Positions 19,884-38,455 of a stretch of 64,000 nt of DNA are shown piece by piece; position 1 is the first letter of the stretch; the number at the start of each line of letters is the position of its first letter. The stretch spans positions 32,001 through 96,000 of the IMG/VR virus record IMGVR_UViG_3300031800_000001. One strand, given 5' to 3'. The notes beneath the pieces are model-generated. The model did no database searches, was not told where the DNA came from, and saw nothing but the letters and a program-made list of their open reading frames with translations. This DNA is from a virus. A program made the translations under genes and the position numbers.

Positions 19884-20270
19884 ATGGCGACTACTTATGA
19901 CATTACCCTTGTGCAGGGAGAAACCTTAGATCTTCGATTTAAGGTCACAGATTCCGATTCTATTCCAATAAATTTAAGCGGATATTCAGCAAGAGGTGTG
20001 GCCCGAATGGGTTATGGAAACACTGGTATACTGTTGAATCTAAATCCGAAGGTAGTTTCTGGAAGCGACGATGATGCCACCCTTGGCGCAAGTGGGTTTA
20101 TTGACGTTTATATTAGGCCAACCGATACCTCCGGCGTGCCCGTGGTACAGGGGGTGTATGATGTAGAAAAATATCTAACCGTTCCTATTGCGTCAGGAGA
20201 TTGGGAGGCTGAAAAAGTGGTAAAAGGATATTTTAATGTCGTTCCAGAAGTGACAATATCACTACAGTAG
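19884..20270 (+). CDS. small beta-sandwich virion protein (BppU-N-like adaptor)
   Basis: DITLVQGETL...PINLSGYSAR...GVYDVE...VVKGYFNVVPEVT pattern typical of phage fibre adaptors. Confidence 0.6.
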   Translation: MATTYDITLVQGETLDLRFKVTDSDSIPINLSGYSARGVARMGYGNTGILLNLNPKVVSGSDDDATLGASGFIDVYIRPTDTSGVPVVQGVYDVEKYLTVPIASGDWEAEKVVKGYFNVVPEVTISLQ

Positions 20271-20280
20271 GGAACGATAA

Positions 20281-23200
20281 ATGGCTCAAAAGGAAGTATC
20301 TGTACAGATTACGCAATTGAGTGCAAGCGTAGAAGCTGCCTCTTCTGCCGGTGCTTCTGTGTCCCAATCTACATCCAGCGCTACAGTAATCAGCGCCAAA
20401 TCAGCAGGAGCACAGACTATCATGGCTGGGCCTCAGGGGCCAGCAGGGCCATCTGGTATATCTGGCATGCAAGGAATATCCGGTATGTCTGGCACAGGTC
20501 CAATAGGACCAAGTGGAGCTACTGGAGCCTCTGGCATTTCTGGAACGCAAGGAGAACAAGGTTCTCAGGGTGACCAAGGCGACCAAGGGATTCAGGGTCC
20601 AAGCGGAGCTACAGGAGTCTCGGGTATTTCTGGAACGCAGGGCATCCAAGGCCCTTCTGGGGCTACTGGCATTTCGGGTATTTCTGGAATGCAAGGAGGA
20701 CAGGGTATTCAAGGAACCCAAGGCGACCAAGGCGACCAAGGCGACCAAGGAATTCAGGGGCCAAGCGGGGCCACGGGAATTATAGGAGCCACGGGCAGCC
20801 AAGGCCCTATAGGACCGCATATCACAGGAATTAGTGGTAGTGGGACAGGGGTAAGCTTCTTTGTCTCCGGAGGAGGCATCCTCGGGCCAATAAACATACA
20901 AGGACCAAGCGGTGCGACAGGCACTAGTGGAATATCAGGGTTAAAAGGAGACTCGGGACCTCAAGGAGATGTCGGAAGTACTGGACCAACGGGCCCTCAG
21001 GGCTCGCAAGGGGATCAAGGCCTTGTTGGCGGAGACACTTTTAACTTTTATTTTAGTACAGATACCATAGACACAGACCCCACAAATGGATATTTAAAAT
21101 TTGGGAATTCCACCTACTCAAGCATAACCGAAATATACGTCGATGATATGGAAAAAGGTGGAGACTCCATAACTGACTGGGTCGATGCCTTAGATGACGT
21201 TTATCAATCAAGAATAAAAGTTTTCTCGGCTAGTGACGCAGAAAAGTGGGCGGTCTTCAAAGTAGTTTCGGACAACACCGCAAAGGTCGGCTATACCCAA
21301 ATCAATGTTAATTATATAGCTCATAGCGATTTATTCGTAGTAGACGAAGAGGTAGCAATGACTTTTGCGCCAGCCGCACAAGGCCCGAAGGGGGATACTG
21401 GACCGACGGGGCCGGGAGGCGCTCAAGGCGATCAGGGGGATCAAGGGGTTGCTGGAACTAGCGGCATTGGAATCACTGGTATAAGTGGGAGCGGAACAGG
21501 GGTAAGCTTTTTATTATCTGGTGGCGGAACTCTTGGTCCAATAAATATACAGGGCCCATCTGGTTTATCTGGTTTATCTGGAATATCAGGAATGCCGGGA
21601 GGTCTGGGAAGCACAGGCCCTCAAGGAGCTCAAGGTGACAAAGGCGACAAAGGCGACCAAGGCGACCAAGGAATTCAGGGAATCCAAGGACCAAGCGGGG
21701 CCACAGGAGCCACAGGAGCCGTGGGGCCGCACATTACAGGCGTAAGTGGCAGTGGGACAGGGGTAAGCTTTTTAGTCTCAGGAGGAGGCGTCATTGGACC
21801 AATAAATATACAAGGGCCCTCTGGGCTTACAGGAATCTCCGGAATGCCGGGAGGACTAGGAAGCGCGGGTCCCCAAGGCGATCAAGGAATCCAAGGGTCG
21901 CAAGGCATACAAGGAACCCAAGGAGACCAAGGTCTTGTTGGCGGAGATAGCTTCGATTTTTATTGGACTACTGATACGGTAGTTTCTGACCCCGGAAATG
22001 GATACATAAAGTTTGATAATTCAACTTATGCAAATGTACAAAAAGTTTTAGTTGATGACCTAGAAAAAGGAGGGGATTCAATAATCGATTGGGTTAATTC
22101 TTTGGATCACGTAACCGGCTCTAGAATAAAAATATTCGACTCGGCCACTGCCGAAAAATGGGCCGTATTTAGGATAGGAAAAGATAATACTGCTGGAGCA
22201 GGATATACCCAGCTTAATGTCAATTATATAGCTCATAGTGACTCTTTCACGTTAAACGAGGCAGTCACATTAACCTATGCACCAGCGGCCAGTGGAGCAC
22301 CGGGGGATGCCGGACCAGCAGGGCCTTCGGGAGCTACGGGAGCTACAGGCGTGGCGGGAGAGGGAACAGGGGACTTCGGTGGATATAGCTTTAGTTTTTA
22401 TTATAATAGCGGGTATTCAGAAGCTCTTTGGTCCGAGGGGCCGGGAACCAGCGGGCTTAAGTTGGTGACTCCGAATAATGATATACGTGACACGTCGGGC
22501 ATAGATATATCTTATACTAATTATCGCGGGGGAGATGCTACTTACTGGCTTGAAGATTTTGGAAATTATGGTGATGTAGCAAATAGAGGCATATTAAAAT
22601 TATTCCATCGAGATAAAGTCAATGTAGAGTGGGCTGCATTTTTGATTACTGGCCAGCCTGCAAGCCGTGATTCTTGGTCAAACGTAGGAGTTACATGGAA
22701 GTCCTCGTCGTCGAGCAGTCCGCCATTGTTTACTCACTCTGGGGAAACCGTAGTCTCTTTCGTTCCAGCTGGCCCAACCGGACAAGCAGGAGCAGCAGGA
22801 GCAGCAGGAGTAGGCGGCGGTGGCGGTGGTGGTGCTCCAGCCACTGGACATACTGGAGCATTTCAGTTCCATGGAGGCTCTATGAATGACGTTGGCGTGG
22901 GTTCGCTTTCGGGGTCGAATGTACTTTTTGAAGGGCACGACTTCAACCAATCGACTACCGGATTTGAATACGCAAACGCAATAGGGATTGGTCAGGAATT
23001 TCAAGAGCTAGCCCTCGGAAACATAGCTCAGTACCCGAACCCAGTCACGCCGGAGTACATCTTAGATTGCGGCATGTCGGGAACGTTGGACGTAAGGGGC
23101 GAGGTGTGGGTCAGTGGAAACCTTGTGCCTCATGTAAGCGGAGGCTTTAATTTGGGCTATAATGAGCCCGCCGGTCTCGGGGCAGAAACAAGAGGTAAAT

Positions 23201-24327
23201 GGTGGGGGGAGATCTTTGCAGATAGTGGGACTTTTCATGGGGCCGCAGTTAACTCGCTTGACGTTATAAATCACGGGGCAAGAGTAAGCATCGGGGCAAG
23301 CCCCGACTACATGTATGGATCGGCAGGCGGATCATTATATTGTCCTACCGGCTATTTTGACAAGATAGGATCATGGCTAGATGCACAGGGACAACCCCCA
23401 CTGAATACAACTATGCATGGAGTTTTCCTTCACCAAAATTGTCTGCATTTCTCGCCAGAGCTTGACGGAGGGGCAGATCTTGGAACCCCAGATTTATATT
23501 GGAGCAGTTTGTATTTAAACAACAACAGTCTCGTAATGTCAGGCGTAGGAATGACCGGCGCTGTGCATATCGGGTTCGATAATGATCACAACCTTAGAAT
23601 AAGCGCACCAAAGACTGGGAACGAAGTAACGATAAGCGGAACACCCTTAACGGGTTATTCTCCTAATACCGTGGCCGACATAAGGTTCTCCGGCACTGGA
23701 CTGTCGGAGGCCACAACGCTAAGGGCCAATAGCGTTGGAGAGCTAACTATATCAACCCAAGGAGACGCAGGTGGGCAGACAACTATTTCTAATGCTAAAA
23801 TAACTTCGCCAATTTTTTCTGGAAACTCTGGGGTTTTTCGATCAGGAATAAACCTAACAAACACTGATCTTGGCATAACATATTTTGACGTACATGATGA
23901 TGGTAATGCAGTAGGAGACATGACATTCTGTGGTCAAGTTAATCAATGCGTAGAAGACTTGGGGGAATTTGGCGAGACCGGATGGGTACCGGACCCATAT
24001 GGTATAGGCATGGGTGGTACTGGATTCAGCATAAATATGGCTGGCAGCAACATGAAGAAATTCAACTTATGCTCGCATGCTCGCGGGCTTAATTTGACGA
24101 ACATAAAGGCTGGGCGTTCAGTGACAATCCAGATCTTCGCAACAGACGGCTGTTTGACAGCAGACGATAATTATTACAGATTTTTAAGCGGTAACAACCT
24201 CAATTTTGTGGGAATTGAGCCGCATACCCTAAAGATAGGAAAAATGGGGCTACTGACAATAACCGCATACGGCACCGGCGCTAGCTCTTGCGTTTGTCAC
24301 TGGGCTGAATCGGATTACACGGTTTAA
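20281..24327 (+). CDS. collagen-like (Gly-X-Y) tail/head fibre protein
   Basis: Long GXY tracts (GPSGATG, GDQ, GIQ, GIS) interrupted by repeated globular modules; C-terminal small beta domain. Confidence 0.85.
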   Translation: MAQKEVSVQITQLSASVEAASSAGASVSQSTSSATVISAKSAGAQTIMAGPQGPAGPSGISGMQGISGMSGTGPIGPSGATGASGISGTQGEQGSQGDQGDQGIQGPSGATGVSGISGTQGIQGPSGATGISGISGMQGGQGIQGTQGDQGDQGDQGIQGPSGATGIIGATGSQGPIGPHITGISGSGTGVSFFVSGGGILGPINIQGPSGATGTSGISGLKGDSGPQGDVGSTGPTGPQGSQGDQGLVGGDTFNFYFSTDTIDTDPTNGYLKFGNSTYSSITEIYVDDMEKGGDSITDWVDALDDVYQSRIKVFSASDAEKWAVFKVVSDNTAKVGYTQINVNYIAHSDLFVVDEEVAMTFAPAAQGPKGDTGPTGPGGAQGDQGDQGVAGTSGIGITGISGSGTGVSFLLSGGGTLGPINIQGPSGLSGLSGISGMPGGLGSTGPQGAQGDKGDKGDQGDQGIQGIQGPSGATGATGAVGPHITGVSGSGTGVSFLVSGGGVIGPINIQGPSGLTGISGMPGGLGSAGPQGDQGIQGSQGIQGTQGDQGLVGGDSFDFYWTTDTVVSDPGNGYIKFDNSTYANVQKVLVDDLEKGGDSIIDWVNSLDHVTGSRIKIFDSATAEKWAVFRIGKDNTAGAGYTQLNVNYIAHSDSFTLNEAVTLTYAPAASGAPGDAGPAGPSGATGATGVAGEGTGDFGGYSFSFYYNSGYSEALWSEGPGTSGLKLVTPNNDIRDTSGIDISYTNYRGGDATYWLEDFGNYGDVANRGILKLFHRDKVNVEWAAFLITGQPASRDSWSNVGVTWKSSSSSSPPLFTHSGETVVSFVPAGPTGQAGAAGAAGVGGGGGGGAPATGHTGAFQFHGGSMNDVGVGSLSGSNVLFEGHDFNQSTTGFEYANAIGIGQEFQELALGNIAQYPNPVTPEYILDCGMSGTLDVRGEVWVSGNLVPHVSGGFNLGYNEPAGLGAETRGKWWGEIFADSGTFHGAAVNSLDVINHGARVSIGASPDYMYGSAGGSLYCPTGYFDKIGSWLDAQGQPPLNTTMHGVFLHQNCLHFSPELDGGADLGTPDLYWSSLYLNNNSLVMSGVGMTGAVHIGFDNDHNLRISAPKTGNEVTISGTPLTGYSPNTVADIRFSGTGLSEATTLRANSVGELTISTQGDAGGQTTISNAKITSPIFSGNSGVFRSGINLTNTDLGITYFDVHDDGNAVGDMTFCGQVNQCVEDLGEFGETGWVPDPYGIGMGGTGFSINMAGSNMKKFNLCSHARGLNLTNIKAGRSVTIQIFATDGCLTADDNYYRFLSGNNLNFVGIEPHTLKIGKMGLLTITAYGTGASSCVCHWAESDYTV
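20821..21825 (+). repeat. three copies of a ~31-aa repeat ITG[IV]SGSGTGVSFxxSGGGxxGPINIQGPSG (starting 20821, 21472, 21733)
   Basis: Visible in both protein and DNA (cagggg-taagctt in all three copies). Confidence 0.85.
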
Positions 24328-24329
24328 CG

Positions 24330-25382
24330 ATGTTCATTACACAGCCACGGAATTGCGCTCTTATTGGAAGCATACCATCAGGAATATTTGAAGGTGACGG
24401 TTCAATTCTTCCGAAGACAACTGGGCACTCGACTTCCGATAACGGCGGAACAAAGCTGGTTGGGTACTTTAACCCAAATGATACAGGTAACGTGTCGGGC
24501 TCGACATACAACAACCTAGTTAGTGGTGAAATGGACTTGGCCATCTACAACGGAATGTCTTATACCACGGGATTTGTCGATGGAGCGGGTTTCTGGAGCG
24601 AAACAAGCGGCACGTTGTTTGACGGCAAAATCGTGGACGCGTCGGATTTTAGACTTACTCGTTATTTTGAGAGCGATGGAGCGGATGATTTTTTAGGACC
24701 TATGTTGTCGTTTTCCGAAGGCTACATCCCCGACGTCCAAGAAACGGGTCTTTATTTAAATGCCGGTGACGGACCCTCGCCTCACGGTGGATATCAAAAT
24801 CACGGTTGGGCGATGTGTATGTGGGTAAATTTTCCTCAGCAAGCTTGGGGAACGAGTGGTAATGTTTTGTTTAGCTGTGGACGCGATGTTATGGATGATA
24901 GATCAACCCTAGCATATACTCTAGAGACGGGGTTTGCATATCAATTTGGTTTGGGGGCAACATATGCCGACACGCAAACACATATTAAACCAATAGAAGC
25001 CGATAGATGGTATTTTGTTGCGTATCAAAACAACGGCACTCGCAGCTTTCTTTACAATGATGATGGAACCGAGATCTCCGTTGATGGCAAGATCCTTCCT
25101 CTCCGACACGAATATGGTGAGTTTTTAAAGCAGGGGAGGTATGCTATGCCAATATACATAGGGGGGTACTACGAGCAGTACGAAATAGACCCACCACTAG
25201 CCGAAAGGGCATATGATGTATCTAAATCAGGAACAAAATTCGGAATGATGCTCCTATACAGCGGCGAAATAGGAATCAATAGAATTATACAAAATTATAT
25301 AGCTACAAGAGATATGTATAACAGAAATAGCGGAGAAAAAGATCCATATTTTGTAGAAAGCCAAGATACATTTACATATTAA
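24330..25382 (+). CDS. LamG/concanavalin-A-like lectin-fold protein
   Basis: LVGYFNP, YFESDGADDF, WAMCMWV, RWYFVA and FGMMLLY...IIQNY. Confidence 0.7.
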   Translation: MFITQPRNCALIGSIPSGIFEGDGSILPKTTGHSTSDNGGTKLVGYFNPNDTGNVSGSTYNNLVSGEMDLAIYNGMSYTTGFVDGAGFWSETSGTLFDGKIVDASDFRLTRYFESDGADDFLGPMLSFSEGYIPDVQETGLYLNAGDGPSPHGGYQNHGWAMCMWVNFPQQAWGTSGNVLFSCGRDVMDDRSTLAYTLETGFAYQFGLGATYADTQTHIKPIEADRWYFVAYQNNGTRSFLYNDDGTEISVDGKILPLRHEYGEFLKQGRYAMPIYIGGYYEQYEIDPPLAERAYDVSKSGTKFGMMLLYSGEIGINRIIQNYIATRDMYNRNSGEKDPYFVESQDTFTY

Positions 25383-25430
25383 AAATAATTAGCAAGAACA
25401 CGATCTGAACCCTAAAATAGAAAGAAGAAG

Positions 25431-26345
25431 ATGGATCTAGGAAAGAAAAATAAACAAATATTTGTAAAACAAATAAGCACATCAGGATGGGAGCAAGGCG
25501 GAGCCCATACTGACTATGAGAATGTTTTCAAAATAGGAAATCCGGGTGACGGAATATTTATTTCTTCAGAAGGAGATAGATTTACAATAACCAGCATTAC
25601 TGGCTCAAACATCACCGGCAGTTTCGCAAGCTCGGGGATTTATGTGGGAAACACAGAGAACACTCTTCTTTTCAAATCTGTAATAGGAGGCAGTGGAATA
25701 CAAATCACCGGTTATACGGGGGATTTGGTTATAGACTTTACGGGTAAACCTAGCCCAGAAGGACAAAACATAGGTACTGATTCGTCGGCTACTGGTTTAA
25801 GTGGGGTATTTAGGGGGATAGACCAAGCGGCGGATGGAACTAGTATTTTCCAATTCAGAAGCTTAACTGGTGCCGGAAATATTATTATCACAGGCGACAC
25901 GGGTAGATTAATTATAAGCGGAAATAATAGCGCCGGCGCTGGAGGTGGCGGAGGTGGCGGGGGTGGCTATACGGGTCATCATATTTATAGTGGAGGAACA
26001 AATCCGGAAGATAGCGGAATTGGGATGATTGAGCAGAGCGGATTTACGGGAAGTTTTGCGCAGTCATTTTCGCAAATGATGGTAACCGGAGATATAACTG
26101 GATTTAGTATGTCCGGAATGACAACTGGTGCGGCAGCCACAATAATGATAACCTGCCCAACCGGAAATAACGTAAGCTTCATGAACGAATTCACATTCAT
26201 AGGAGAAGAACCCGTGGCTTTTCACTCTGGAAAAACAGGCCTACTTGTTTTTACTTGCTTTGGCACTGGAGGCCCCGGGATTTCCCCACATGAGCACAAT
26301 ACGCTTCCAAGCGGAGTGTTAGCGGCATACGGAGTACAGGATTAA
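25431..26345 (+). CDS. short fibre protein, extremely S/T-G rich
   Basis: LLFKSVIGGSGIQIT / FQFRSLTGAGNIIIT fibre repeats; C-terminal domain similar to that of 20281..24327. Confidence 0.75.
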   Translation: MDLGKKNKQIFVKQISTSGWEQGGAHTDYENVFKIGNPGDGIFISSEGDRFTITSITGSNITGSFASSGIYVGNTENTLLFKSVIGGSGIQITGYTGDLVIDFTGKPSPEGQNIGTDSSATGLSGVFRGIDQAADGTSIFQFRSLTGAGNIIITGDTGRLIISGNNSAGAGGGGGGGGGYTGHHIYSGGTNPEDSGIGMIEQSGFTGSFAQSFSQMMVTGDITGFSMSGMTTGAAATIMITCPTGNNVSFMNEFTFIGEEPVAFHSGKTGLLVFTCFGTGGPGISPHEHNTLPSGVLAAYGVQD

Positions 26346-26347
26346 GG

Positions 26348-27325
26348 ATGCATATAACAGACTGGAAAAGCACTGCTTGGCTACGAGCATTGGGACAGAA
26401 GTCTAGTTCAATCGTCGATGACGTTGAATTCAGGCCCGGAAAAGTTATATCCAAAAATCTTATTGGTCACTTTGATCCGAATAATATTTCTTGTTATAAC
26501 GGCGCTGTGGGAGGGGATACATACAGCAATTTGGTGGCCGGTCAGGAAGATTTATGTCTTTGGAATATGGATACGGTGCCGACGTTTGGCGAAACGCCTG
26601 ATTTTGAATCACCGACAAGCACCTCGGTGGGCTATTTTATGGGAGATGGATTAGACAACTATATGCGCGAATGCGGGGGATATGCCGGAGGGTTCGCCCT
26701 TAATGTATCAAACGATTTTACCCTGAATGTCTGGGTTCAAGTGAATGCGGTTGCGCTTGGAAAACTAGGAGGCTCATCGTGTCCAAGATATGGAGGCTAC
26801 ATTGGGGTCGGTGCTATAAACGACAAGTCTAACGGTGGGTGTGCGGTTGGAGTTGTAGGAGACGATAGTGGGAACTACGGCAGGATTGCCCTGTTCGCGC
26901 CGTCGGCGGATAGCCCGGCGGCGTATAGTGATCGCCGCTCAATCGGGTCGAAGATTGAGTCAAATAAATGGTATATGTTTTCACTAGTAAAAGAAGTTCT
27001 TAGTCCAAATTTTGATAGAATTACTTTGTATTTAAATGGGGTTTACCAAAGGTTAATTACGGGGGCGAATTGCACGCAAACTGGCACAGGACAACACAAA
27101 GGAGAACTGATTCCGGCTGGCTATATTGGTGGGGCCCAACAGGTAGTTGTTATGGCTTTATGGCAAGAATATTACGGCATGGGTTCGCCTTCCCCCGCGT
27201 CGAGTGCTAATTTTGGCCACATTTTGGTATACAACAGGGCATTAAAACACTCAGAATTAAGACAAAACTATTTAGCGCTAAATCAACTCTATTATCCATT
27301 TAGAGAAGGAGCAATAATACAATGA
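26348..27325 (+). CDS. LamG/concanavalin-A-like lectin-fold protein
   Basis: LIGHFDP, YFMGDGLDNY, FTLNVWV, KWYMFSLV, ITLYLNG and ILVYNRALKHSELRQNY. Confidence 0.78.
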   Translation: MHITDWKSTAWLRALGQKSSSIVDDVEFRPGKVISKNLIGHFDPNNISCYNGAVGGDTYSNLVAGQEDLCLWNMDTVPTFGETPDFESPTSTSVGYFMGDGLDNYMRECGGYAGGFALNVSNDFTLNVWVQVNAVALGKLGGSSCPRYGGYIGVGAINDKSNGGCAVGVVGDDSGNYGRIALFAPSADSPAAYSDRRSIGSKIESNKWYMFSLVKEVLSPNFDRITLYLNGVYQRLITGANCTQTGTGQHKGELIPAGYIGGAQQVVVMALWQEYYGMGSPSPASSANFGHILVYNRALKHSELRQNYLALNQLYYPFREGAIIQ

Positions 27326-27567
27326 GAGAAGACCTAAAATTTGTTATATTAAACGAGAACGAAGTGGGCTATGTTGACTTCACAGAAGTCCTTCAAACTA
27401 GCCCAGCGTCAATGAGATATTCTTTAGATAGAAGCAAAACATTTGTAAAATATAAAGGGGAGCAGCCCGAGTTTATATTTGAAATTACAAACGATCTAGT
27501 GGGAAGAAAAGAATACTCACACCAAGAGTTTTTGGAAATACTTAGCACAGAAGAATGGAACCGATAA
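27322..27567 (+). CDS. small fibre-associated hypothetical protein
   Basis: ATGA overlap; VDFTEVLQTS...RYSLDRSKTFVKY...YSHQEFLEILSTEEW. Confidence 0.65.
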   Translation: MREDLKFVILNENEVGYVDFTEVLQTSPASMRYSLDRSKTFVKYKGEQPEFIFEITNDLVGRKEYSHQEFLEILSTEEWNR

Positions 27568-29846: not shown

Positions 29847-30979
29847 ACGGAGATAAAAGACACAAAATGGCAATCCGTAAAAGGATTAGGAAAGATAATT
29901 TCCTAGATTCCGAAGGGATAGTTAATACCCCCAGAAAGTCAGAAGGAAAATTTTGCAAGAATCCTTTTGACCAATTTGAAATTCACCCTAACGGTATGGT
30001 GTCTGTTTGCTGCATGAGTTGGCTTCCCGAGAAAATAGGAAACGTCAAAGAAGAAAGCGTTAAGGAGGTTTTCAACTCGGAAAAAGCACAGGAAATAAGA
30101 GAAAGCATATTGGATGGTTCTTTCAAATACTGCGATCACAAACTATGCCCATACATACAGAACGGATCTTTGCCGGACAAGGAAGAGGTTACTGATCCTC
30201 GTCATAAATCAATTATAAAAAACAACAAAACAAAAGACCTTGAGCCGACGTTTTATAATCTTTGCTATGATGAGTCCTGTAATTTAAGCTGCCCAAGCTG
30301 TAGAAAAAATAAGATTCTTTATTACGAGGGCAAAGTTTATGAAGAAAAGAAAAAAATACAAGATAATATAATAAAACATATCTTCGGAAAGCCTCACGAC
30401 AATTACTGCCTTATTAACGTAACTGGCTCGGGAGACCCATTCGGATCGAAGCTTTTTAGGGAACTGTTGTTTAGTATAGATGGAGAAAAATTTCCTAGGG
30501 TATTTTTTAATCTACAGACAAACGGGGTAATGTTCACCCCCAAGTATTGGGAAAAGATGAAAAGAATACAAAAAAACATCAACACAGTTATGGTTTCATA
30601 TGACGCCGGAACACCAGAAACATATAAGATTACCCGCAGGGGAGGGGATTGGGATCAGCTTCAAAAAAATATGAAATTTCTGAGCTCTCTAAGACAAAAA
30701 GGTCTTATCAATGAGCTAAGAATAGACTGCGTTGTCCAAAAAGCTAACTACAAAGAATTAGATAAGCTAGTGAAGATAGGTTTAGACTTGAAAGTGGATA
30801 AAGTATTTTTTTCGCTACTCGTAGATTGGGGCACATGGACACCCGAAATATACAAACAAAATTGTATATGGAAAAAAACACATCCAGAATTTGAAGAATT
30901 TACAAAGGCTTTGCTGAATCCAATTTTCAATGACCCGATTGTGGACTTAGGAAATTTAACGGAATACAAAAAATGTTAG
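29843..30979 (+). CDS. radical SAM protein with N-terminal SPASM/twitch domain
   Basis: CNLSCPSC, TGSGDPF, LQTNG, SYDAG and TRRGG; N-terminal C..PF...G.VSVCC...IGN...YC...C. Confidence 0.88.
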   Translation: MNGDKRHKMAIRKRIRKDNFLDSEGIVNTPRKSEGKFCKNPFDQFEIHPNGMVSVCCMSWLPEKIGNVKEESVKEVFNSEKAQEIRESILDGSFKYCDHKLCPYIQNGSLPDKEEVTDPRHKSIIKNNKTKDLEPTFYNLCYDESCNLSCPSCRKNKILYYEGKVYEEKKKIQDNIIKHIFGKPHDNYCLINVTGSGDPFGSKLFRELLFSIDGEKFPRVFFNLQTNGVMFTPKYWEKMKRIQKNINTVMVSYDAGTPETYKITRRGGDWDQLQKNMKFLSSLRQKGLINELRIDCVVQKANYKELDKLVKIGLDLKVDKVFFSLLVDWGTWTPEIYKQNCIWKKTHPEFEEFTKALLNPIFNDPIVDLGNLTEYKKC

Positions 30980-31680
30980 TATTTAATAAATTAAAATGCG
31001 TGTTCACGCCCATATTGAAAGTGGGCACGAATAGTTTTTTTTACTATTGGGGAGACGTAATGTATGGAGAAGAAGACTCCTTGGTTAAGAAAGTGAAAAA
31101 AGGCACTGGTGGAGGTCACTCCACCAAACTTAGACATAGGGTTAAGAGGGATTTTAACGTGGAGTGGGACCCATCGGTTCGAGAGTCTGTTGCGGGCTAT
31201 TATAAATTTGCTTTTGTAAGAAATCCGTGGGTCAGGGCCGTGTCGGCTTTTCGGGAACTAATAAGGCGGTATCCATTTGGGCAAACCGTGGTAAACGAAG
31301 AAGCGGGGTTAACTTATTACGAAATATATGATTTAATGGATGGGCATGTGGATTTTGAAAATTTTATTAATTTTGTCGTAAATAGAGAAAGGGATCACAC
31401 AAATGTAATTAATGGGCATTGGAGAACGCAAGTCGTGACTCTTTGTATGCATCATAAGGAAGGAGCTATGGAATATGATTTTTTTGGTAAATTGGAAAAT
31501 GTTGATGATGATCTAAATAAGGCTCAAAAGCGTTTGGGTCTTGAAGAAACTAAATTATCCAAAGAGCATGAAACTGCGGCATACGATTATAAATTGTACT
31601 ACAAAAACAAAAAAATAATCGACATGGTCGGGGAATATTATAAAGAAGACATAGAGAAATTCGGTTATGATTTCGCATAA
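30973..31680 (+). CDS. sulfotransferase family 2 (carbohydrate sulfotransferase-like)
   Basis: 5'-PSB PILKVGTNS, 3'-PB FVRNPWVRAVSA, HWRTQ, GKLEN and YYKEDIEKFGY. Confidence 0.88.
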   Translation: MLVFNKLKCVFTPILKVGTNSFFYYWGDVMYGEEDSLVKKVKKGTGGGHSTKLRHRVKRDFNVEWDPSVRESVAGYYKFAFVRNPWVRAVSAFRELIRRYPFGQTVVNEEAGLTYYEIYDLMDGHVDFENFINFVVNRERDHTNVINGHWRTQVVTLCMHHKEGAMEYDFFGKLENVDDDLNKAQKRLGLEETKLSKEHETAAYDYKLYYKNKKIIDMVGEYYKEDIEKFGYDFA

Positions 31681-32302
31681 GCATAAAATAATTTTCGTGC
31701 CCATCCCAAAGAACGCCAGCCGCTCTATCGCTTTTCTTATTAATGGGGATGAATCGGATTATGGACACTCTACTGCCAAGGGTCTAATGAGAAAGCATAG
31801 GGAATATTGGGATGATTATTATAAGTTTTGTGTGGTAAGAAACCCTTATGATAGGATTGTGTCTGCATATCATCATTTCAAAACCACGCAATTCAAGCGA
31901 GGCGTAAGGGGTTCGAAGCCAAGGCGTATGCAGAATTTACTTAAACAATATTCGGGTTTTCAGGATTTTGTTTTGAATTATCTTAAAGACGCAGAGTTGG
32001 TTCAGTTCCGTTTAGTGTCGGGGGCTGATATTTCCATCAGCCCTACTGTGCATTTTTACCCTCAAATTATGTGGCTGTTAAACTCAAATGGTAAAATAAA
32101 TGACAATATAAATATATTTAAATTTGAAAAATTAGACGAAGTAGTACAAAAGCTAACGACAGAATACGATATGTCTAACGAGTTTGGCCACCTCAACAAG
32201 GGCAAACGAAACCACTACTCTGAATACTACACAGACGAGCTTTATGAAGTTATTTACAAGAAGTACCAAAAAGACTTCGAGTTATTAGGCTATGACAGAT
32301 AA
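31667..32302 (+). CDS. sulfotransferase family 2
   Basis: PIPKNASRS, VVRNPYDRIVSA, HFYPQ, FKFE and YQKDFELLGY. Confidence 0.9.
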   Translation: MISHKHKIIFVPIPKNASRSIAFLINGDESDYGHSTAKGLMRKHREYWDDYYKFCVVRNPYDRIVSAYHHFKTTQFKRGVRGSKPRRMQNLLKQYSGFQDFVLNYLKDAELVQFRLVSGADISISPTVHFYPQIMWLLNSNGKINDNINIFKFEKLDEVVQKLTTEYDMSNEFGHLNKGKRNHYSEYYTDELYEVIYKKYQKDFELLGYDR

Positions 32303-33623
32303 AATTTATTGCACCAGAGCTTTTGATCATGTTCAATTATTGGACAATGGAGAAATGACACCGTGTTGTCCTCCGTGGGTTGATCATTATTCTATAGGCA
32401 ATATAAATGAACAATCATATGAGGAAATTTGGAACGGCGAAAAAGCTCAAAAATTTAGGGAGTCCATATTAGACGGCTCTTTTCGATATTGTAACGCTAA
32501 ATCTTGTCCACATTTACAATCCCAAACACATTGCGTCGGGACAGTAAAACAATTAAAACAACGCAAATTAATAAATGATTCAATACTTTACGACATACTG
32601 CATGAAGATGTCGTTTTAAATCATGGGCCTCATGAAATACAATTTTGTTACGACAGATCATGCAATCTATCTTGTCCATCATGCAGGAGAGGAATAATAA
32701 TGGTTTCTGGCAAAAAGAAACAAAAATTGTTAGATATGCAAAACAAGCTACAAGCAGACTTTCTAAAAGACGCGGATCGACTTATCGTTACTGGATCTGG
32801 AGACGCATTTGCTAGTCCTATTTTTCGAAAATTCCTGCAAACATTCACAAAAGAACAAGCGCCGAAGCTGCGGCATATAAATATATTGACAAACGGCTTA
32901 CTCATTAAGAAGCACTGGGCAACGCTTAGCGAGTATGCCAAGGAAAAAATTCAATACATTAGCGTATCTATAGACGCAGCAACGCCGGAAACATATACTA
33001 TAAACAGGAGGGGTGGAGACTGGAATTTGCTACATGAAAATTTAAAATTTGTTGAAGACTTGAAGGCTGCTAATGAAATTAAAGCATTTCAGACTAGTAT
33101 CGTGGTACAAGATAATAATTTTCGTGAACTGTTTGATTTTATTTTAATGTGTGAAAAATATGCCGTGGACTCTGTTCAGTTGCAAATTATTGAGCCAGAT
33201 TTTATACGGGATTTGGGATACGGTGATTATCTTGAGGAATGGATTCAAAAAGCTGTCCACGAAAAGGTTCATCCTAATCATAACGAATTATTAAACATTC
33301 TCAAAGATGACTTCTTTAATATTTATATAAACAGATATAACGGTGAAGCTCCAGCCGGAACAGCCGTTTCAATGGGTCAATTGTTTAATTTAAGAAACGG
33401 TAGCGATATATCGCAATATGATCAACTACTAGAAGAAGAAGAAAAACTAAAGTTAGCTAAAAAAAGCTCGCTAAAGGACATATGGTACAATAACAAAGTT
33501 TATTTTGTCGCTCCCGAAACCCTGAAAAAAATAAACGGAACCGACACAGCCAAGCTACCAACGGGAGAAACGATCATCTGGGACGAAGATAAAGAGAAGT
33601 GGGCAAAATACCATGCCTATTAA
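32292..33623 (+). CDS. radical SAM protein with N-terminal SPASM/twitch domain
   Basis: CNLSCPSC, TGSGDAF, ILTNG, SIDAA and NRRGG; N-terminal CTRAF...PCC...IGN...YC...C. Paralogue of 29843..30979. Confidence 0.88.
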   Translation: MTDKIYCTRAFDHVQLLDNGEMTPCCPPWVDHYSIGNINEQSYEEIWNGEKAQKFRESILDGSFRYCNAKSCPHLQSQTHCVGTVKQLKQRKLINDSILYDILHEDVVLNHGPHEIQFCYDRSCNLSCPSCRRGIIMVSGKKKQKLLDMQNKLQADFLKDADRLIVTGSGDAFASPIFRKFLQTFTKEQAPKLRHINILTNGLLIKKHWATLSEYAKEKIQYISVSIDAATPETYTINRRGGDWNLLHENLKFVEDLKAANEIKAFQTSIVVQDNNFRELFDFILMCEKYAVDSVQLQIIEPDFIRDLGYGDYLEEWIQKAVHEKVHPNHNELLNILKDDFFNIYINRYNGEAPAGTAVSMGQLFNLRNGSDISQYDQLLEEEEKLKLAKKSSLKDIWYNNKVYFVAPETLKKINGTDTAKLPTGETIIWDEDKEKWAKYHAY

Positions 33624-34284
33624 CAGAAAAAGCGAGTTGCTCTTCATTCACATCCCCAAAACAGGCGGAACAAAAATAGAAGAAATACTAGATATGAAAT
33701 TCGCGGGGGATGACCCTAAGGTTTCAAGCGAAAAACTATATGGGTTTGTAAGAATATACGACGAACTCCATGAACTACAGCACTTAACATACAAACAAAC
33801 ATTAGATTTTGGGCTGGTCGACAAAAGCCTGTTCGATAAATGCTATAAATTCGCATTCGTCAGAAATCCGCTTGACAGGGTTGTGTCTGAATATTTTTGG
33901 TTAGGATACAAATACTTTTCTAAGTTCGAGGACTTCGTTGAGTTTTTACATAAGAGAAAAGGAGAACCGGATGTTCGCGGTACTGTAGAAAATTACATGT
34001 CTCTCGACTGGCTTTTAAATTCCCCCTTCTATGCGCCCCAACATAAATTCATTTGCGACAGAAGAGGTAAATTAATGGTTGATTTTTTAGGCAGATTTGA
34101 AAACTTCCCTAAAGATTTAGCTACCCTATTGGACAATCTAGGAGTGGAATACGACGAAGAATTTTTATTTAAAAAAGTAAATGCTACGAAACACGAAAAA
34201 TATACCACTTACTACAACAAAAAAACAAGAGACATGGTTAAATCCATATATAAGAGAGATTTCGAAATATTTGGTTACGAATAA
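33613..34284 (+). CDS. sulfotransferase family 2
   Basis: HIPKTGGTK, FVRNPLDRVVSE, GRFEN and YKRDFEIFGY. Confidence 0.9.
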   Translation: MPINRKSELLFIHIPKTGGTKIEEILDMKFAGDDPKVSSEKLYGFVRIYDELHELQHLTYKQTLDFGLVDKSLFDKCYKFAFVRNPLDRVVSEYFWLGYKYFSKFEDFVEFLHKRKGEPDVRGTVENYMSLDWLLNSPFYAPQHKFICDRRGKLMVDFLGRFENFPKDLATLLDNLGVEYDEEFLFKKVNATKHEKYTTYYNKKTRDMVKSIYKRDFEIFGYE

Positions 34285-34298
34285 GTGTAAATATCAGT

Positions 34299-34550: not shown

Positions 34551-34576
34551 GCTCTTTCCGGTGTAATCTTAATTGT

Positions 34577-35086
34577 ATGAAAGCCGTAGATATTGCAGAC
34601 CAAATCCACAGAGAATTAGGAAGCCCGACAGACCTAGGCATAGCCGCTATAGCATTTTGGGTACGCACAAACATTGGCGCGCTGAATAACTACCTGAATA
34701 CCAGCTATGCAATTAATCAATCTTCGTATGAAATAGAGAGAGATATCAATGGTACAGCAACCGCAATAGGTATTAATGAAGGGGGTATACTCAAAAAAAT
34801 GTATACAATACACTATTACGACAATAAACTGAGGAGCGTATTATCCGCAGCAACCTCAGATGCGGTTATCGCTTTGTCTTCAGACGGGTCATCAATTAAA
34901 AAGATTAACAAAAACGAACAAGCAAAGCTCTATGCGACCATACGCGGCGCAAGCCAATCAGAATTGGAGCGCATGGTGGGTCAATACAAGCTGAACGACG
35001 TACAACCATTACAGGTGGCAGGGGACGACGATCAATCGGCGTATATACTTCCGAATAGAGAATATGTAAGAATTAGGAAATACTAA
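34577..35086 (+). CDS. putative head-tail adaptor
   Basis: Position at the start of the neck/tail block; helical; GTGTAA at 34561-34566. Confidence 0.55.
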   Translation: MKAVDIADQIHRELGSPTDLGIAAIAFWVRTNIGALNNYLNTSYAINQSSYEIERDINGTATAIGINEGGILKKMYTIHYYDNKLRSVLSAATSDAVIALSSDGSSIKKINKNEQAKLYATIRGASQSELERMVGQYKLNDVQPLQVAGDDDQSAYILPNREYVRIRKY

Positions 35087-35088
35087 TT

Positions 35089-35529
35089 ATGGCGAGCTTA
35101 GTATCAGCAGACGAAATCAACTCGTTCACGGGTGATTTTCAGAATTTATTTGACACTTTTAAGAGGTCGATCACGGTGCACAAGGCACCTAAAAAGATCA
35201 TTAACCAAATAAATACTGATTTTTTACATGGTTACGGCGATTCATCTGATCAGGTTAATTATACATATTCTCCGGTGTCTAAAGCTTTTGATTGCATGGT
35301 GCTATACAAAGACAGACAGGAGGCAGACGAAATGGAAAATATTAACTTAACCTATTTCGCCGGAGACATAAGAATAAAGGTCGACGAAGAAACGAAAGAC
35401 TACATACGAAACGGAAAAACAGAAAAGATTTCAGTAGACGGAAAAGACTTTCAGCTAATGACTGAAGAATCTGTGAAGTATTTTTTCGGAATAAAGCTTT
35501 ATGTTTTTCATCTACAATTTACCAAGTAA
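35089..35529 (+). CDS. putative head closure/stopper protein
   Basis: Size, beta-rich pattern and synteny. Confidence 0.5.
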   Translation: MASLVSADEINSFTGDFQNLFDTFKRSITVHKAPKKIINQINTDFLHGYGDSSDQVNYTYSPVSKAFDCMVLYKDRQEADEMENINLTYFAGDIRIKVDEETKDYIRNGKTEKISVDGKDFQLMTEESVKYFFGIKLYVFHLQFTK

Positions 35530-36116
35530 TGAGAATAAACCCAATAAAAATCAAAAGAAAGATAGTAAGGAACATAAAAAAAGTTCCTGAAAGGGTTAAA
35601 ATAGAGGCTCAAAGAAAGTTTAACCGAGCAAAACGAGAAATGATAACTGAATTTGAAAGCCACCCGATTACTCAAGAGCTAGAAGGCGGACCTATGGGAG
35701 GAAACGTCTCTGGCACGCTTGGAGGAGTAGGAAATCTATTTAGTTTCATAGGTTTTCAAGAAGGATCAAATCCAATAGCTACGCTAAGAGAGATGCTAAA
35801 TAATTACCGGATCAATATTATGTCACCAAAGATAATTAAAAGAAGTTCCGGGGTAGACTTTCAATTTAGGGTAACTGGCCCAAGTATGGCAGAAATTGAA
35901 GCAGCAACATATCTAAGTTGGCTTGGGAAAAGTTGGGTAAGAGGCGTAGAAAGAGGTATGACTGGGTTGGGAAACTATTTAGCGCTGATGGGAGCAATCG
36001 GAAGTAGATCAGGAGGGGGTATACAGGCAAAAACATCATATAGGGGAGGAGCCTATAGGCCCACTAAATACATGAGTTCGTTATTGAGAACGTTCTTTTT
36101 AAATTTTAGAAGATAA
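35529..36116 (+). CDS. putative neck/tail completion protein
   Basis: Basic protein in the position of HK97-gp10-like genes. Confidence 0.5.
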   Translation: MRINPIKIKRKIVRNIKKVPERVKIEAQRKFNRAKREMITEFESHPITQELEGGPMGGNVSGTLGGVGNLFSFIGFQEGSNPIATLREMLNNYRINIMSPKIIKRSSGVDFQFRVTGPSMAEIEAATYLSWLGKSWVRGVERGMTGLGNYLALMGAIGSRSGGGIQAKTSYRGGAYRPTKYMSSLLRTFFLNFRR

Positions 36117-37031
36117 ATGAAAGCACAATTTGACAATAAAGTGATGTCCAGCTTCTTGCTGTGGTTCGACCACACGCTGCTTAGAGAAGGCGAAGCGTTT
36201 ACGGACATCTCTAGTTGGTTTTACCCCGTGGAGAGCCTACATAATAACCTGTATACATACGGTGCCCCATTCAAGCAGTTCGTAAGTGATTTTTCTATAA
36301 CAGGAACCGGCGCGGCATTCGCCAACAGAACAGTACAGATTCCTACCGGAATCTATCTAGATGGTTCGCTCATAGGAACGGGGACAAGCAATTTTAGTGG
36401 CATGAGTTACGAGCAGGGGCAAGTTTATTTTGGCACAGAAATAACAACCCCCGAAACAAGGCTGAGTGGTGATTATGCCGTAAAGGATTTCAATGTATAT
36501 CTAACTAACGAGCCAGAAGAAAAATTGCTTTTTGAGACGAAGTTCCACCTAAGGCCTAAAACCGCCGAAACACAAACAGGCTTAGCTTCTAACGCGATAA
36601 CCTATCCAGCTATTTTTTTAAGATATAACGGTTCCCACAGTGAACCATTGGCGTTTGGCGGGTATGACATGACGACCATAAATCTAAGGGCGGTAGTCTT
36701 GGCGGATAATCAATTTAATTTAGACGCTGTTTGTTCCATAATGAGGGACAAGGTAAGAACATTTTTTACGTTATTTGGTACAGGGGATATGCCTTACAAC
36801 ACTCTTGGTGACTATAAAAGCGGTGTGCCTTGGAGCTATACCGGAAAGAAAGCAAGTTATGAAGAAAACAGTTACATTTTCATAGAAAACGTAGGAATTT
36901 CTAAATTTTCTAGAGATGTGAACGTTAAGGTAAATAATTTGAACCCGGATGTCTTTAATGGTGTAATTGACTTTGAGGTTACGAAACCTAGGTATCCTCG
37001 AAAGGCTAATAGAAATCAGGATTTACAATAA
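36117..37031 (+). CDS. putative tail terminator/structural protein
   Basis: Immediately upstream of the tail tube gene; YPAIFL motif. Confidence 0.5.
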   Translation: MKAQFDNKVMSSFLLWFDHTLLREGEAFTDISSWFYPVESLHNNLYTYGAPFKQFVSDFSITGTGAAFANRTVQIPTGIYLDGSLIGTGTSNFSGMSYEQGQVYFGTEITTPETRLSGDYAVKDFNVYLTNEPEEKLLFETKFHLRPKTAETQTGLASNAITYPAIFLRYNGSHSEPLAFGGYDMTTINLRAVVLADNQFNLDAVCSIMRDKVRTFFTLFGTGDMPYNTLGDYKSGVPWSYTGKKASYEENSYIFIENVGISKFSRDVNVKVNNLNPDVFNGVIDFEVTKPRYPRKANRNQDLQ

Positions 37032-37090
37032 CAAAAAAAGTTTTCCCTAAAAACTAAAAAATATGTAATAAAAAGAAAGGATTATAAATC

Positions 37091-38398
37091 ATGGCAAGAA
37101 ACAGAGTTATTTATCAAAGTGAGGCTCTCTATGTGAGTCAAACACCGGCTGTTAGTGGCTTCTTTACTGACAAAACTGCCGTTGGTGCAGAAGGATATAT
37201 CAGCGCTCCGCTGCATCCATCTGGAAACCAAGTAAGGCAGTTGCACAGAATTCAGACCGCTAACTATTCGTTTAACATACCGCGCACAGACATTAACCAG
37301 TTTGGCGAGTTGGCTGCTATCGACAGAGTTGTAATGGACACTCCCACGGTAGCATTGGACTTCAGTTACATACTAGCAACCATGGAAAACGAAATGAATC
37401 TTGGATTCGTTACGGATGGACATGCTAGCTGCATTTCTGGGATTCTTAATAAGACACAAGACGAGAAAAACTACTTCATCAAGACTGTTGGTGAGGGTGT
37501 TGACGCCGTCGGAGATCTTGGACCCGAAAAAGACAGCATCGCAATCGAAGGAGATTACGAGTTTGTAATTGGAATTGGCAATGGATTCATTACCTCGTAC
37601 ACGACAGAGTGTTCGGTGGGTAATTTCCCAACTGTTACAATAAATGTTGAGGGTCTTAACATGACTTTCGAGAGCGGCGTGAGTGGCGCAAGCCCCGCGG
37701 TGAAGCCCGAAAGTGGAACAAGACTTGAGCATTTCAAGTATATTCTTCCGACTACCACAGGCAGCGCCGAGACAGGAATTATGGCAACAAGCGCCCTGCG
37801 CCCCGGAGACATCACCTTCGCCTTCGCGAAAGCCGATAGAGAATCAGTGCAATTATCTGGTACGCTCTTCGATTCGGTTACCGACGACGAGGATACGTAT
37901 GATGCTCCCGGAGCACACCTCGGAAACATGGATTCCAAAGCACACGCTAAGATTCAAAGCTACAACATCAGTCTAGATATGGCAAGAGAGCCGATCAACA
38001 GACTCGGAAGCCGGTTTGCGTTCTCTCGTGAGATCACATTCCCGATGTCCGTGACCTGTACGATTGACGCTCTGGTGGCCGATCTGACCACTGGTAGTTT
38101 GTCGGATATCATCAATTGTGATGATTCTTACGACATCGTAGTTAACCTTCTGCGTCCCACAAGCTGCCCCGGCACGCTTACTGATGGAACCGCAAAGGAT
38201 ATCTTCGCCCAGTATTGGTTGAAGAACTGCAAAGTGAATAGCCAAGCGTTTAGCTCGGATATCGGCAGCAACAAGAGTGTGACTCTCGAGTTCGCAACTC
38301 AGGTTGGTGGACCGAACCAGAAGAACCAAGGCTTGTTTATGAGCGGTATCTCGACTGGATATCTCTCGATGCAAAGAGATGCGAGTGCTGATTCCTAA
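37091..38398 (+). CDS. major tail tube protein
   Basis: Followed by a strong terminator, two chaperone genes and the TMP; beta-rich; ATGTAA motif variant at 37063-37068. Confidence 0.72.
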   Translation: MARNRVIYQSEALYVSQTPAVSGFFTDKTAVGAEGYISAPLHPSGNQVRQLHRIQTANYSFNIPRTDINQFGELAAIDRVVMDTPTVALDFSYILATMENEMNLGFVTDGHASCISGILNKTQDEKNYFIKTVGEGVDAVGDLGPEKDSIAIEGDYEFVIGIGNGFITSYTTECSVGNFPTVTINVEGLNMTFESGVSGASPAVKPESGTRLEHFKYILPTTTGSAETGIMATSALRPGDITFAFAKADRESVQLSGTLFDSVTDDEDTYDAPGAHLGNMDSKAHAKIQSYNISLDMAREPINRLGSRFAFSREITFPMSVTCTIDALVADLTTGSLSDIINCDDSYDIVVNLLRPTSCPGTLTDGTAKDIFAQYWLKNCKVNSQAFSSDIGSNKSVTLEFATQVGGPNQKNQGLFMSGISTGYLSMQRDASADS

Positions 38399-38426
38399 GC
38401 CGAATTAAGCAACTAAACCTTAACCA

Positions 38427-38455
38427 GCCCCCGGTGAAAACCGGGGGTTTTTTTT
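38427..38455 (+). terminator. intrinsic terminator after tail tube gene
   Basis: gcccccggt-gaaa-accgggggt followed by a T-run. Confidence 0.88.

Follow-up and report, generated by a model that had tools for sequence, protein, structure and literature searches.

Enrichment of Ser/Thr-Gly in tail, neck and fibre proteins of an uncultured siphophage with a glycan-tailoring gene cassette: a probable structural signature

In pelagimyophages and cyanomyophages, the host recognition cluster (HRC) combines fibre genes with cassettes of GT8-like glycosyltransferases (GTs) and radical SAM enzymes (Zaragoza-Solas et al. 2020, PMC7029224). A similar arrangement is found in the uncultured phage described here, of which we analysed a stretch of 64,000 nucleotides (hereafter the window; positions 32,001 to 96,000 of IMG/VR record IMGVR_UViG_3300031800_000001). 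In both systems, a hypervariable island containing fibre, GT and radical SAM genes is located in the structural region by the neck genes, and the functions of the enzymes are putative. However, the HRC belongs to T4-like myophages (between VrlC and gp14), whereas the present phage is a siphophage with a T5 pb6/P74-26-type tube and a TP901-type tape measure protein of 6,037 amino acids. In addition, three Sulfotransfer_2 genes are present here, whereas PMC7029224 contains no mention of sulfotransferases. In mycobacteriophages, according to the summary of Freeman et al. (2023) given in PMC12619734, virion glycans are attached to capsid and tube subunits at their C-termini. The two systems are alike in that capsid or tail subunits are possible substrates of a phage-encoded GT, and the tube protein carries a C-terminal extension in the GT-bearing clade of our phage. 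They differ in that the mycobacteriophage glycans, as summarised there, are at C-termini and not at [S/T]-G dipeptides, and in that modification in the present system is putative.

The original prediction was that [S/T]-G dipeptides, concentrated in exposed virion proteins, are the acceptor sites of an adjacent GT/radical SAM/sulfotransferase cluster that glycosylates the virion. Our analysis confirmed the dipeptide bias and the enzyme cluster; the link between the two was not supported. The cluster comprises one bifunctional GT, two radical SAM enzymes and three Sulfotransfer_2 sulfotransferases (genes are named here by their start positions in the window, and all features given below as start..end are on the plus strand). 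The GT (27555; 27555..29846) contains a GT-A domain with an invariant DxD motif (D262, D264) and a GT-B domain, as judged from an AF2 model (pLDDT 81.5), which matched the GT-B enzymes BshA, GlgM, SdgB and SenB and the GT-A enzymes LARGE1, alpha3GalT and GlyE in Foldseek (E ~1e-7 to 1e-8). No match to 27555 was detected in Pfam, PHROG or NCBIfam (the latter scanned at E 0.01), and two of its homologues carry PF00535. It also did not match the curated autotransporter heptosyltransferase (BAHT; TibC/Aah) model, and the TibC structure is absent among the Foldseek matches listed. Both radical SAM enzymes (29843..30979 and 32292..33623) possess an N-terminal SPASM/twitch domain, with PF13186 and PF04055 above their cut-offs and the CxxxCxxC motif in the form CNLSCPSC; their best NCBIfam model was NF033640 (N_Twi_rSAM), at 85.6 and 71.4 bits, below the curated cut-off of 170. 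The sulfotransferases (30973..31680, 31667..32302 and 33613..34284) match PF03567 at 80.3, 64.5 and 73.9 bits (E 3e-22, 2e-17 and 3e-20; gathering cut-off 22), and the first and third also match phrog_3347 (E 9e-25 for the third). All six enzymes look soluble, without membrane segments. These genes form a soluble glycan-tailoring cassette, which is a real feature separate from the [S/T]-G bias and whose target may be the fibre or the host envelope.

Strong terminator-like hairpins, each with a T-run, were found after the capsid gene (19351..19378; 12-bp stem with 8 GC pairs) and after the tube gene (38426..38449; 10-bp stem with 7 GC pairs). The six enzyme genes and the fibre, neck and tube genes are all located between these only two strong plus-strand terminators, which bound the unit upstream and downstream. 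This arrangement suggests that the cassette shares a transcript with the fibre, neck and tube genes and that it would be expressed late, together with the structural genes.

Rather than a demonstrated modification sequon, the excess of [S/T]-G is probably a sequence signature of structure, namely that of the beta-rich virion proteins of this lineage, which are built from repeats. The dipeptide occurs at about twice the chance level in tail, neck and fibre proteins. The site numbers given in the original prediction were exact for the Gly-rich fibre protein 25431 (28), the tube-like paralogue 9234 (13), the tube protein 37091 (12), 36117 (10) and 19884 (6), as well as for the site-poor terminase (2), ClpP (1) and 683-amino acid protein at the portal position (4); the 'dozens' of sites attributed to the collagen-like fibre 20281 amounted to 91. 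After correction for composition, an approximately 2- to 2.8-fold excess was observed in 9234, 19884, 20281, 24330, 25431, 36117 and 37091. Significance was assessed by shuffling within each protein, and the z values were 7.8 for 20281, 5.6 for 25431, 4.0 for 9234, 3.7 for 36117, 3.0 for 19884, 2.9 for 24330 and 2.3 for 37091. Only 20281, 25431 and 9234 passed the Bonferroni correction for 41 proteins and 36117 was borderline, although the excess in 36117 and 19884 is backed by the conservation of sites in orthologues. No excess was found after composition correction in the terminase, the portal protein, ClpP, the major capsid protein or the enzymes. The protein encoded at 40847-58960, which had been regarded as a site-rich J protein, contains 66 sites, as many as expected (observed/expected ratio (O/E) 0.98). 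Its assignment as a J protein was also rejected, as PF10145 and LysM identify it as the 6,037-amino acid tape measure protein.

The codons used at the [S/T]-G sites are diverse and in proportion to the overall usage, indicating that the bias exists at the protein level and is not a DNA motif. The reverse dipeptide, G[S/T], is not enriched (O/E of 0.82 for fibre-block proteins and 1.16 for those of the neck/tail core, compared with ~1.9-2.0 for [S/T]-G); therefore, the bias is directional and does not reflect local richness in Ser, Thr and Gly. Among X-G pairs, enrichment is confined to SG and TG (NG 0.58, DG 0.98), and the sites are followed by a hydrophobic residue in ~54% of cases, as had been noted. 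In the non-structural ORFs (C1:1-32000 of the genome), the pooled O/E of [S/T]-G is 0.88, and the preference is for NG (1.52) and DG (1.38) over SG (0.86) and TG (0.91). The reversal of this preference in the 19884 and 36117 families favours the structural interpretation, and so does the lack of excess in the major capsid protein. The virion proteins of lambda and SPP1 show no systematic [S/T]-G bias; virion folds in general thus do not entail it, a result that counts against a structural origin.

In the fibre proteins, the sites would come from two sources. One is the collagen Gly-X-Y triplet with Ser or Thr at Y. The collagen-like fibre (20281..24327; 1,348 amino acids) matches PF01391 (111.6 bits; cut-off 27.2) and tail-fibre PHROGs, and contains 363 residues within Gly-X-Y runs. 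As in other collagen-like phage fibres and in the Gly-X-Thr repeats of the BclA type, Ser or Thr at Y (45 of ~120 triplets) automatically yields [S/T]-G. Accordingly, 46 of the 91 sites are inside the Gly-X-Y runs, and this half of the sites is in line with the structural reading. The collagen likeness applies to none of the sites in the other six proteins, and sites also occur in the non-collagen part of 20281, as had been noted (O/E 1.85 outside the runs). The other source would be short tandem units of [S/T]-G-x-x-hydrophobic-x, of the beta-roll or beta-solenoid type, in which Gly would be placed at a turn, the preceding hydroxyl residue would cap it and the following residues would begin a strand. 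The clearest example of tandem sites is a giant fibre of at least 3,676 amino acids encoded just outside the window (G000:C1:105057-116086), which contains 300 sites versus 123 expected (z 19.8). Of its 299 site spacings, 156 are 6 or 7 residues, and the units include TGTTYA and TGGTNYI. By sequence, this repeat region scored best against PF21300, the grass antifreeze beta-roll (17.7 bits; cut-off 30), in Pfam and against 3ULT, the ice-binding beta-roll of Lolium perenne (E 0.03), in the PDB. The Lolium protein and the giant fibre both consist of tandem units of ~7 residues ending in [S/T]-Gly, and their repeats align with SG/TG in register. However, both matches are weak and below threshold and provide a structural precedent, not homology, and the phage units are Thr-rich and 6-7 residues long. 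In the fibres of relatives (z 6.8-8.6), the sites are likewise at fixed places of the repeats (e.g. YTTGDQxISGxKTF), which together with the periodicity of the giant fibre supports the structural reading.

Within the window, the strongest excess is that of 25431 (25431..26345; 304 amino acids; 12.4 sites expected), where the sites are grouped at 3- to 8-residue spacing. The C-terminal part of this protein weakly resembles phage tail-fibre C-terminal domains, which serves as a lead only. The excess is moderate in 24330 (24330..25382; 350 amino acids; 13 sites versus 6.5 expected), for which no family match was found in profile searches, and is absent from a further protein of the fibre block (26348..27325; O/E 0.76), which weakly matches a PHROG of virion structural proteins.

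For the tube-like proteins and those of the neck module and the terminator position, the excess would correspond to a handful of conserved turn positions, at which the lineage may use Ser/Thr-Gly where its non-structural proteins favour Asn/Asp-Gly. In the 19884, 36117 and tube families, the sites are conserved in position at 40-50% identity, with Ser and Thr interchanging and Gly invariant. Five of the six sites of the small virion-module protein 19884 (19884..20270; phrog_1084) are shared by 7 or more of 11 orthologues, and four sites of the 304-amino acid protein 36117 (36117..37031), which is encoded directly upstream of the tube gene in a terminator-like position, are conserved in 23-25 of 25 orthologues. 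The nearest named Atlas clusters of 36117 are tail-terminator families (0.78-0.85), again a lead only. The major tail tube protein (37091..38398), identified by Foldseek matches to the T5, DT57C and P74-26 tubes (E 1e-8 to 1e-10), has five sites that are conserved throughout the family, whereas its remaining sites are specific to the clade and mostly in low-confidence loops. Some tube columns exchange with Asp or Asn (D12/N9/S4 at position 208 and S14/N10 at position 418), and this exchange and the conservation of positions agree with a role in turns. On the other hand, the tube is the sole biased protein that was modelled, and its pLDDT of only 58 weakens this argument. The paralogue 9234 (9234..10544; 436 amino acids; 5.1 sites expected) aligns with the tube at 25% identity, and in distant relatives such paralogues are biased as well (O/E 2.6-2.75).

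The block from 20281 to 34284 is absent from six relatives (L008-L012 and L020), in which the homologues of 19884 and 34577 are adjacent and the slot is thus empty, and other gene content takes its place in other relatives. The fibre block is therefore a variable segment inserted between the head and neck modules, and its cassette content turns over fast between relatives. Orthologues of 19884, 36117 and 9234 retain sites under any enzyme cassette or beside an empty slot; the 19884 family beside an empty slot keeps an O/E of 2.3-2.5, and 9234-like paralogues are biased also in G001, a genome without PF03567 or PF13469 sulfotransferases. The mean O/E of the tube family is even lower with enzymes in the slot (~1.07) than with an empty slot (1.31). 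These findings favour a structural origin of the bias. Against it, nearly every relative has some GT or sulfotransferase: several have GT25 or Sulfotransfer_3/1 genes in the same slot, beside [S/T]-G-rich fibres, and no relative free of both GTs and sulfotransferases was found, so that a modification system using these sites may exist across the lineage. Furthermore, in the clade of our phage, the tube gained 7-8 additional sites, most of them in variable loops, alongside the 27555-type GT, and a 14-residue C-terminal extension of the tube is present only in the five phages with this GT.

The proteoglycan-like nature proposed for the sites was not borne out. The xylosyltransferase sequon of animal proteoglycans is Ser-Gly flanked by acidic residues. 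Ser-Gly is common to both systems, but here no acidic cluster is present and Thr is as frequent as Ser: among the 82 sites of the six non-collagen proteins, Asp or Glu follows in 10 and precedes in 9, and hydrophobic residues dominate. No xylosyltransferase-type family was detected in the Pfam and NCBIfam scans, and the fold matches listed for 27555 belong to other GT-A/GT-B families.

That [S/T]-G or an exposed subset of it is O-glycosylated by a late-expressed 27555, with the radical SAM enzymes tailoring and the sulfotransferases sulfating the glycans to give sulfated glycoprotein fibres and tail, seems quite improbable. The case for it consists of the apparently soluble enzymes inside the fibre block (one GT with GT-A and GT-B domains, two radical SAM enzymes and three sulfotransferases of the carbohydrate type), the lack of a strong terminator anywhere from the hairpin at 19351 to that at 38426, the unrelated enzymes in the same slot of relatives, the preference for Ser/Thr over Asn/Asp before Gly, and the tube sites and extension gained in the GT-bearing clade. 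However, these tube gains represent a single evolutionary event, and collagen triplets and 6- to 7-residue tandem repeats account for sites. The retention of sites with different cassettes or an empty slot, the Asn/Asp exchanges, the non-acidic context and the unenriched capsid protein also argue against acceptor sites, and 27555 matches no protein O-GT family model, including that of the TibC type. About as improbable is a narrower version, in which 27555 would glycosylate only a subset of the sites, be it on the fibres, in variable loops of the tube or on its C-terminal tail, which would be followed by editing of the glycan by the radical SAM enzymes and its sulfation, and the lineage bias would reflect selection for acceptor sites.

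The cassette may instead decorate the virion at other residues, such as those of the collagen-like region, of the C-terminal ends of the fibres or of the C-terminal tail that the tube has in this clade, with the [S/T]-G bias being unrelated and structural. We regard this as unlikely, even though the gene arrangement suggests late co-expression, the pairing of fibres and enzymes recurs in the variable slot, the tube extension is confined to the five GT-bearing phages, and the mycobacteriophage glycans summarised in PMC12619734 are C-terminal; the connection between extension and GT comes from one clade, and the capsid protein has no C-terminal extension. Modification of the host envelope, e.g. 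of precursors of the O-antigen or capsule at its cytoplasmic face, which could block superinfection or re-adsorption and would leave the virion unmodified and the bias structural, is a decidedly improbable explanation. It is the published reading of the fibre-adjacent GT8 and radical SAM cassettes (PMC7029224), and it is consistent with the rapid cassette turnover and with PF03567 and phrog_3347 being carbohydrate sulfotransferase families, the latter filed under auxiliary/moron functions. However, a place in an apparently late structural unit fits poorly with the need for early expression, and the enzymes contain no membrane segments.

The structural signature that we favour is compatible with an acceptor role of the same dipeptides. 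Our results indicate that a striking dipeptide bias can come from fibre repeat architecture and the choice of turn residues, and they confirm a real glycan-tailoring cassette in what seems to be a late structural unit, in a phage whose tube is of the T5 type. Candidates for analysis by mass spectrometry or co-expression are the proteins 25431 and 20281, the C-terminus of the tube and the giant fibre of TG repeats. Were the sites acceptors, they would amount to the first prediction, at the level of a sequon, of virion glycosylation and sulfation in phages other than mycobacteriophages and would provide a function for the widespread fibre-adjacent GT/radical SAM/sulfotransferase cassettes of aquatic phages; if only a subset were modified, this uncultured aquatic siphophage would carry a sulfated glycoprotein coat.

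Seven proteins encoded in the window contain more Ser-Gly and Thr-Gly dipeptides ([ST]G) than expected. A recount returned the same numbers as the original prediction, and the excess survived correction for composition by residue shuffling within each protein. It is largest in the collagen-like fibre 20281 (genes are named by their start positions; 91 sites versus 47 expected, z 7.8) and the Gly-rich fibre 25431 (28 versus 12.4, z 5.6), followed by the tube-like paralogue 9234 (13 versus 5.1, z 4.0), the 304-aa protein 36117 encoded upstream of the tube gene (10 versus 3.7, z 3.7), the small virion-module protein 19884 (6 versus 2.1, z 3.0), the fibre-block protein 24330 (13 versus 6.5, z 2.9) and the tube 37091 (12 versus 6.9, z 2.3). 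No excess was found in the terminase, the protein at the portal position, ClpP, the 392-aa protein at the capsid position or the enzymes; the tape measure (O/E 0.98) and the pooled ORFs of the upstream part of the contig (C1:1-32000; O/E 0.88) are at expectation.

Among the X-Gly pairs of the six non-collagen proteins, only SG (2.33) and TG (2.15) are enriched (NG 0.58, DG 0.98), and the reverse pair G[ST] shows no enrichment in the biased proteins. A DNA-level motif was ruled out, as many different codons and hexamers occur at the sites, in proportion to their overall usage. Because only SG and TG are enriched, their reverse pairs are not and the codons are diverse, the signal resides at the protein level and is directional. 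Local richness in Ser, Thr and Gly was likewise ruled out by the lack of enrichment of G[ST], SS, ST and GG in the biased proteins. The signal is therefore neither a composition artefact nor a DNA-motif artefact. Nor is it a universal property of virion proteins, because the lambda and SPP1 virion proteins lack a systematic bias.

The source record is a single viral contig of 116 kb (∼71% complete), of which the window comprises bases 32001-96000. All of the listed genes are on the plus strand. Those for PhoH, a sigma factor, an ERCC4 nuclease and the large terminase come first, followed by those for the 683-aa protein at the portal position, the tube-like paralogue 9234, a tubulin homologue, ClpP, the head proteins 16001, 17566 and 18155, and then 19410 and 19884. 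Fibre and enzyme genes occupy the next 14 kb (20281-34284) and precede the neck-module genes 34577, 35089, 35529 and 36117, the tube gene 37091, two genes at the chaperone position and the gene for a 6037-aa protein. Foldseek grouped 37091 with the tail tubes of T5 (pb6), DT57C and P74-26 (E 1e-8 to 1e-10). The 6037-aa protein (40847-58960), originally taken for a J protein, is instead the tape measure, with PF10145 (tape-measure core) and LysM domains; the tape measures of relatives have 2000-2500 aa, so that of the window is ∼2.5 times longer. The tubulin/FtsZ-family GTPase gene (10741-11925; PF00091, E 4e-12) lies within the head-morphogenesis region, flanked by the genes for the tube-like paralogue and ClpP, and relatives retain it (63% identity in L008).

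The distribution of the bias was examined in 29 related viral contigs retrieved with the tube protein as query. In the orthologues of 19884 (19884-20270), [ST]G O/E is 2.2-3.0 throughout, and it averages 1.94 in those of 36117 (36117-37031); the tube orthologues average only 1.23, versus 1.8 in the window's own clade. The 9234-like paralogues of distant relatives retain the bias (O/E 2.75 in G001 and 2.6 in G023). The bias is real and lineage-wide. Many sites in the core proteins are conserved in position at 40-50% sequence identity, with Ser and Thr interchanging and Gly invariant, and some columns exchange with Asp or Asn (D12/N9/S4 at tube position 208, S14/N10 at position 418). In the non-structural ORFs of C1:1-32000, NG (1.52) and DG (1.38) are favoured and SG (0.86) and TG (0.91) are not. 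This preference is reversed in the 19884 and 36117 families, where NG and DG are depleted (0.2-0.7) and Ser/Thr-Gly is favoured. From the alignments and dipeptide ratios, we read the core-protein pattern as a putative swap of turn residues, by which labile, deamidation-prone Asn-Gly and Asp-Gly may possibly be avoided in long-lived particles. The AF2 model of the tube is of low quality (pLDDT 58) and does not allow secondary structure to be assigned firmly at the sites; in it, 9 of the 12 sites fall in coil and the clade-specific ones mostly in low-confidence loops. PDB sequence searches with the tube and 25431 gave nothing useful. Contigs with tube homologues were also encountered in MAG bins assigned to very different phyla (L043-L051; three Flavobacteriales bins, Verrucomicrobiales, Halobacteriovorax, Heimdallarchaeota and others), which are probably phage contigs that were mis-binned or carried along.

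In the fibres, the sites largely follow the repeats. Approximately half of those in 20281 (46 of 91) lie within Gly-X-Y runs, where they arise automatically because 45 of ∼120 triplets have Ser or Thr as Y; outside these runs, O/E is still 1.85. Just beyond the 3' end of the window, at least 3676 aa are encoded by an open-ended ORF (G000:C1:105057-116086; L042:9057-20000), with 300 sites where 123 are expected (z 19.8). Most of its length is made up of hundreds of hexa- and heptapeptides in tandem (TGTTYA, TGGTNYI, SGNFVYV), and 156 of the 299 site spacings are 6 or 7 residues. The sole Pfam and PDB sequence matches of this repeat region, both weak, are to the grass antifreeze beta-roll (PF21300, 17.7 bits; 3ULT, E 0.03), with SG/TG in register in the alignments, which provides a structural precedent rather than homology. 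The three ORFs preceding it (C1:102033-105054) have z values of 2.3-3.1, and one contains a TIG domain. In fibre-like proteins encoded by relatives, z rises to 6.8-8.6 and the sites are fixed within repeats such as YTTGDQxISGxKTF; when the [ST]G-rich fibre of one relative was compared with cultured phages by tblastn, no match was obtained. Since triplets and tandem repeats carry the sites, repeat architecture explains most of the signal in the fibres.

The enzyme cassette is real. Its predicted glycosyltransferase, 27555, had no family match in family-model searches, the TibC-type model included, and the profile of its family reached only E 0.16 against PDB sequences (a GT2 enzyme). The AF2 model (pLDDT 81.5), however, matched both GT-B enzymes (BshA, GlgM, SdgB, SenB and OtsA) and GT-A enzymes (LARGE1, alpha-1,3-GalT, GlyE and UGGT) in Foldseek (E ∼1e-7 to 1e-8), and a DxD motif is invariant in the 23-sequence alignment of the family. 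These fold matches and the motif confirm the assignment; among its homologues, one is a fusion with a sulfotransferase and two contain PF00535. Radical SAM enzymes, each with a SPASM/twitch domain at the N-terminus and a CNLSCPSC motif (best NCBIfam match NF033640, under its cut-off), are encoded by 29843 and 32292, and PF03567 sulfotransferases by 30973, 31667 and 33613. No membrane segments were found in any of the six enzymes. Strong plus-strand terminators occur only at 19351-19378, 3' of the capsid gene, and at 38426-38449, 3' of the tube gene, so the fibre, enzyme, neck and tube genes look like one late transcription unit, and the cassette is probably expressed late.

The stretch between the 19884 and 34577 homologues is a variable slot. 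The two genes are adjacent in L008-L012 and L020, which therefore lack the entire block 20281-34284, and relatives with an occupied slot carry other fibres plus enzymes: Sulfotransfer_3/1 in L005, L024, L026 and L027, GT25 in L005, L019, L026 and L027, and only the GT-A part of 27555 in L003 and L004. The Sulfotransfer_3/1 and GT25 genes are non-orthologous and lie upstream of the neck genes, beside the fibre genes of their own phages (L005:5390-6870, L026:5-1458, L024:5818-6651, L019:2074-2817). Directly upstream of the 34577 homologue, many relatives encode a conserved ∼288-aa family without a Pfam match (L023:6631-7497; homologues in L013, L016, L019, L022 and L024), which is absent from the window.

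According to the original prediction, [ST]G would be the acceptor site of these enzymes, a reading that we consider unlikely. Two single-clade events fit it, namely the extra tube sites of the window's clade and a 14-residue C-terminal extension of the tube (38356-38398, the last 14 codons; e.g. GYLSMQRDASADS), which is restricted to the five phages that encode a 27555-type GT (the window and L001-L004) and absent in 19 other orthologues. However, nothing connects the cassette specifically to [ST]G. The bias of the 19884 and 9234 families is independent of cassette type and slot occupancy, and tube O/E is no higher with an enzyme-filled slot (mean ∼1.07) than with an empty one (1.31). Scans for PF03567, PF13469 and PF01755 detected at least one GT or sulfotransferase gene in many of the 29 records, most of which are fragments, and several carry GT25 or PF03567 genes outside the slot as well; among these mostly fragmentary records, no relative was shown to be without all such genes.

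The proteoglycan sequon requires acidic flanks, which are absent at the window sites. The glycans reported for mycobacteriophages, as summarised in PMC12619734, are attached to the C-termini of the capsid and tube subunits rather than to [ST]G sites. Islands of GT8-type glycosyltransferase genes and radical SAM cassettes that lie beside fibre and neck genes have been described in pelagimyophages and cyanomyophages as the host recognition cluster, and modification of the host O-chain was the role preferred in that study (PMC7029224). On balance, the [ST]G bias of this phage lineage is best explained as a structural signature of turns and repeats.
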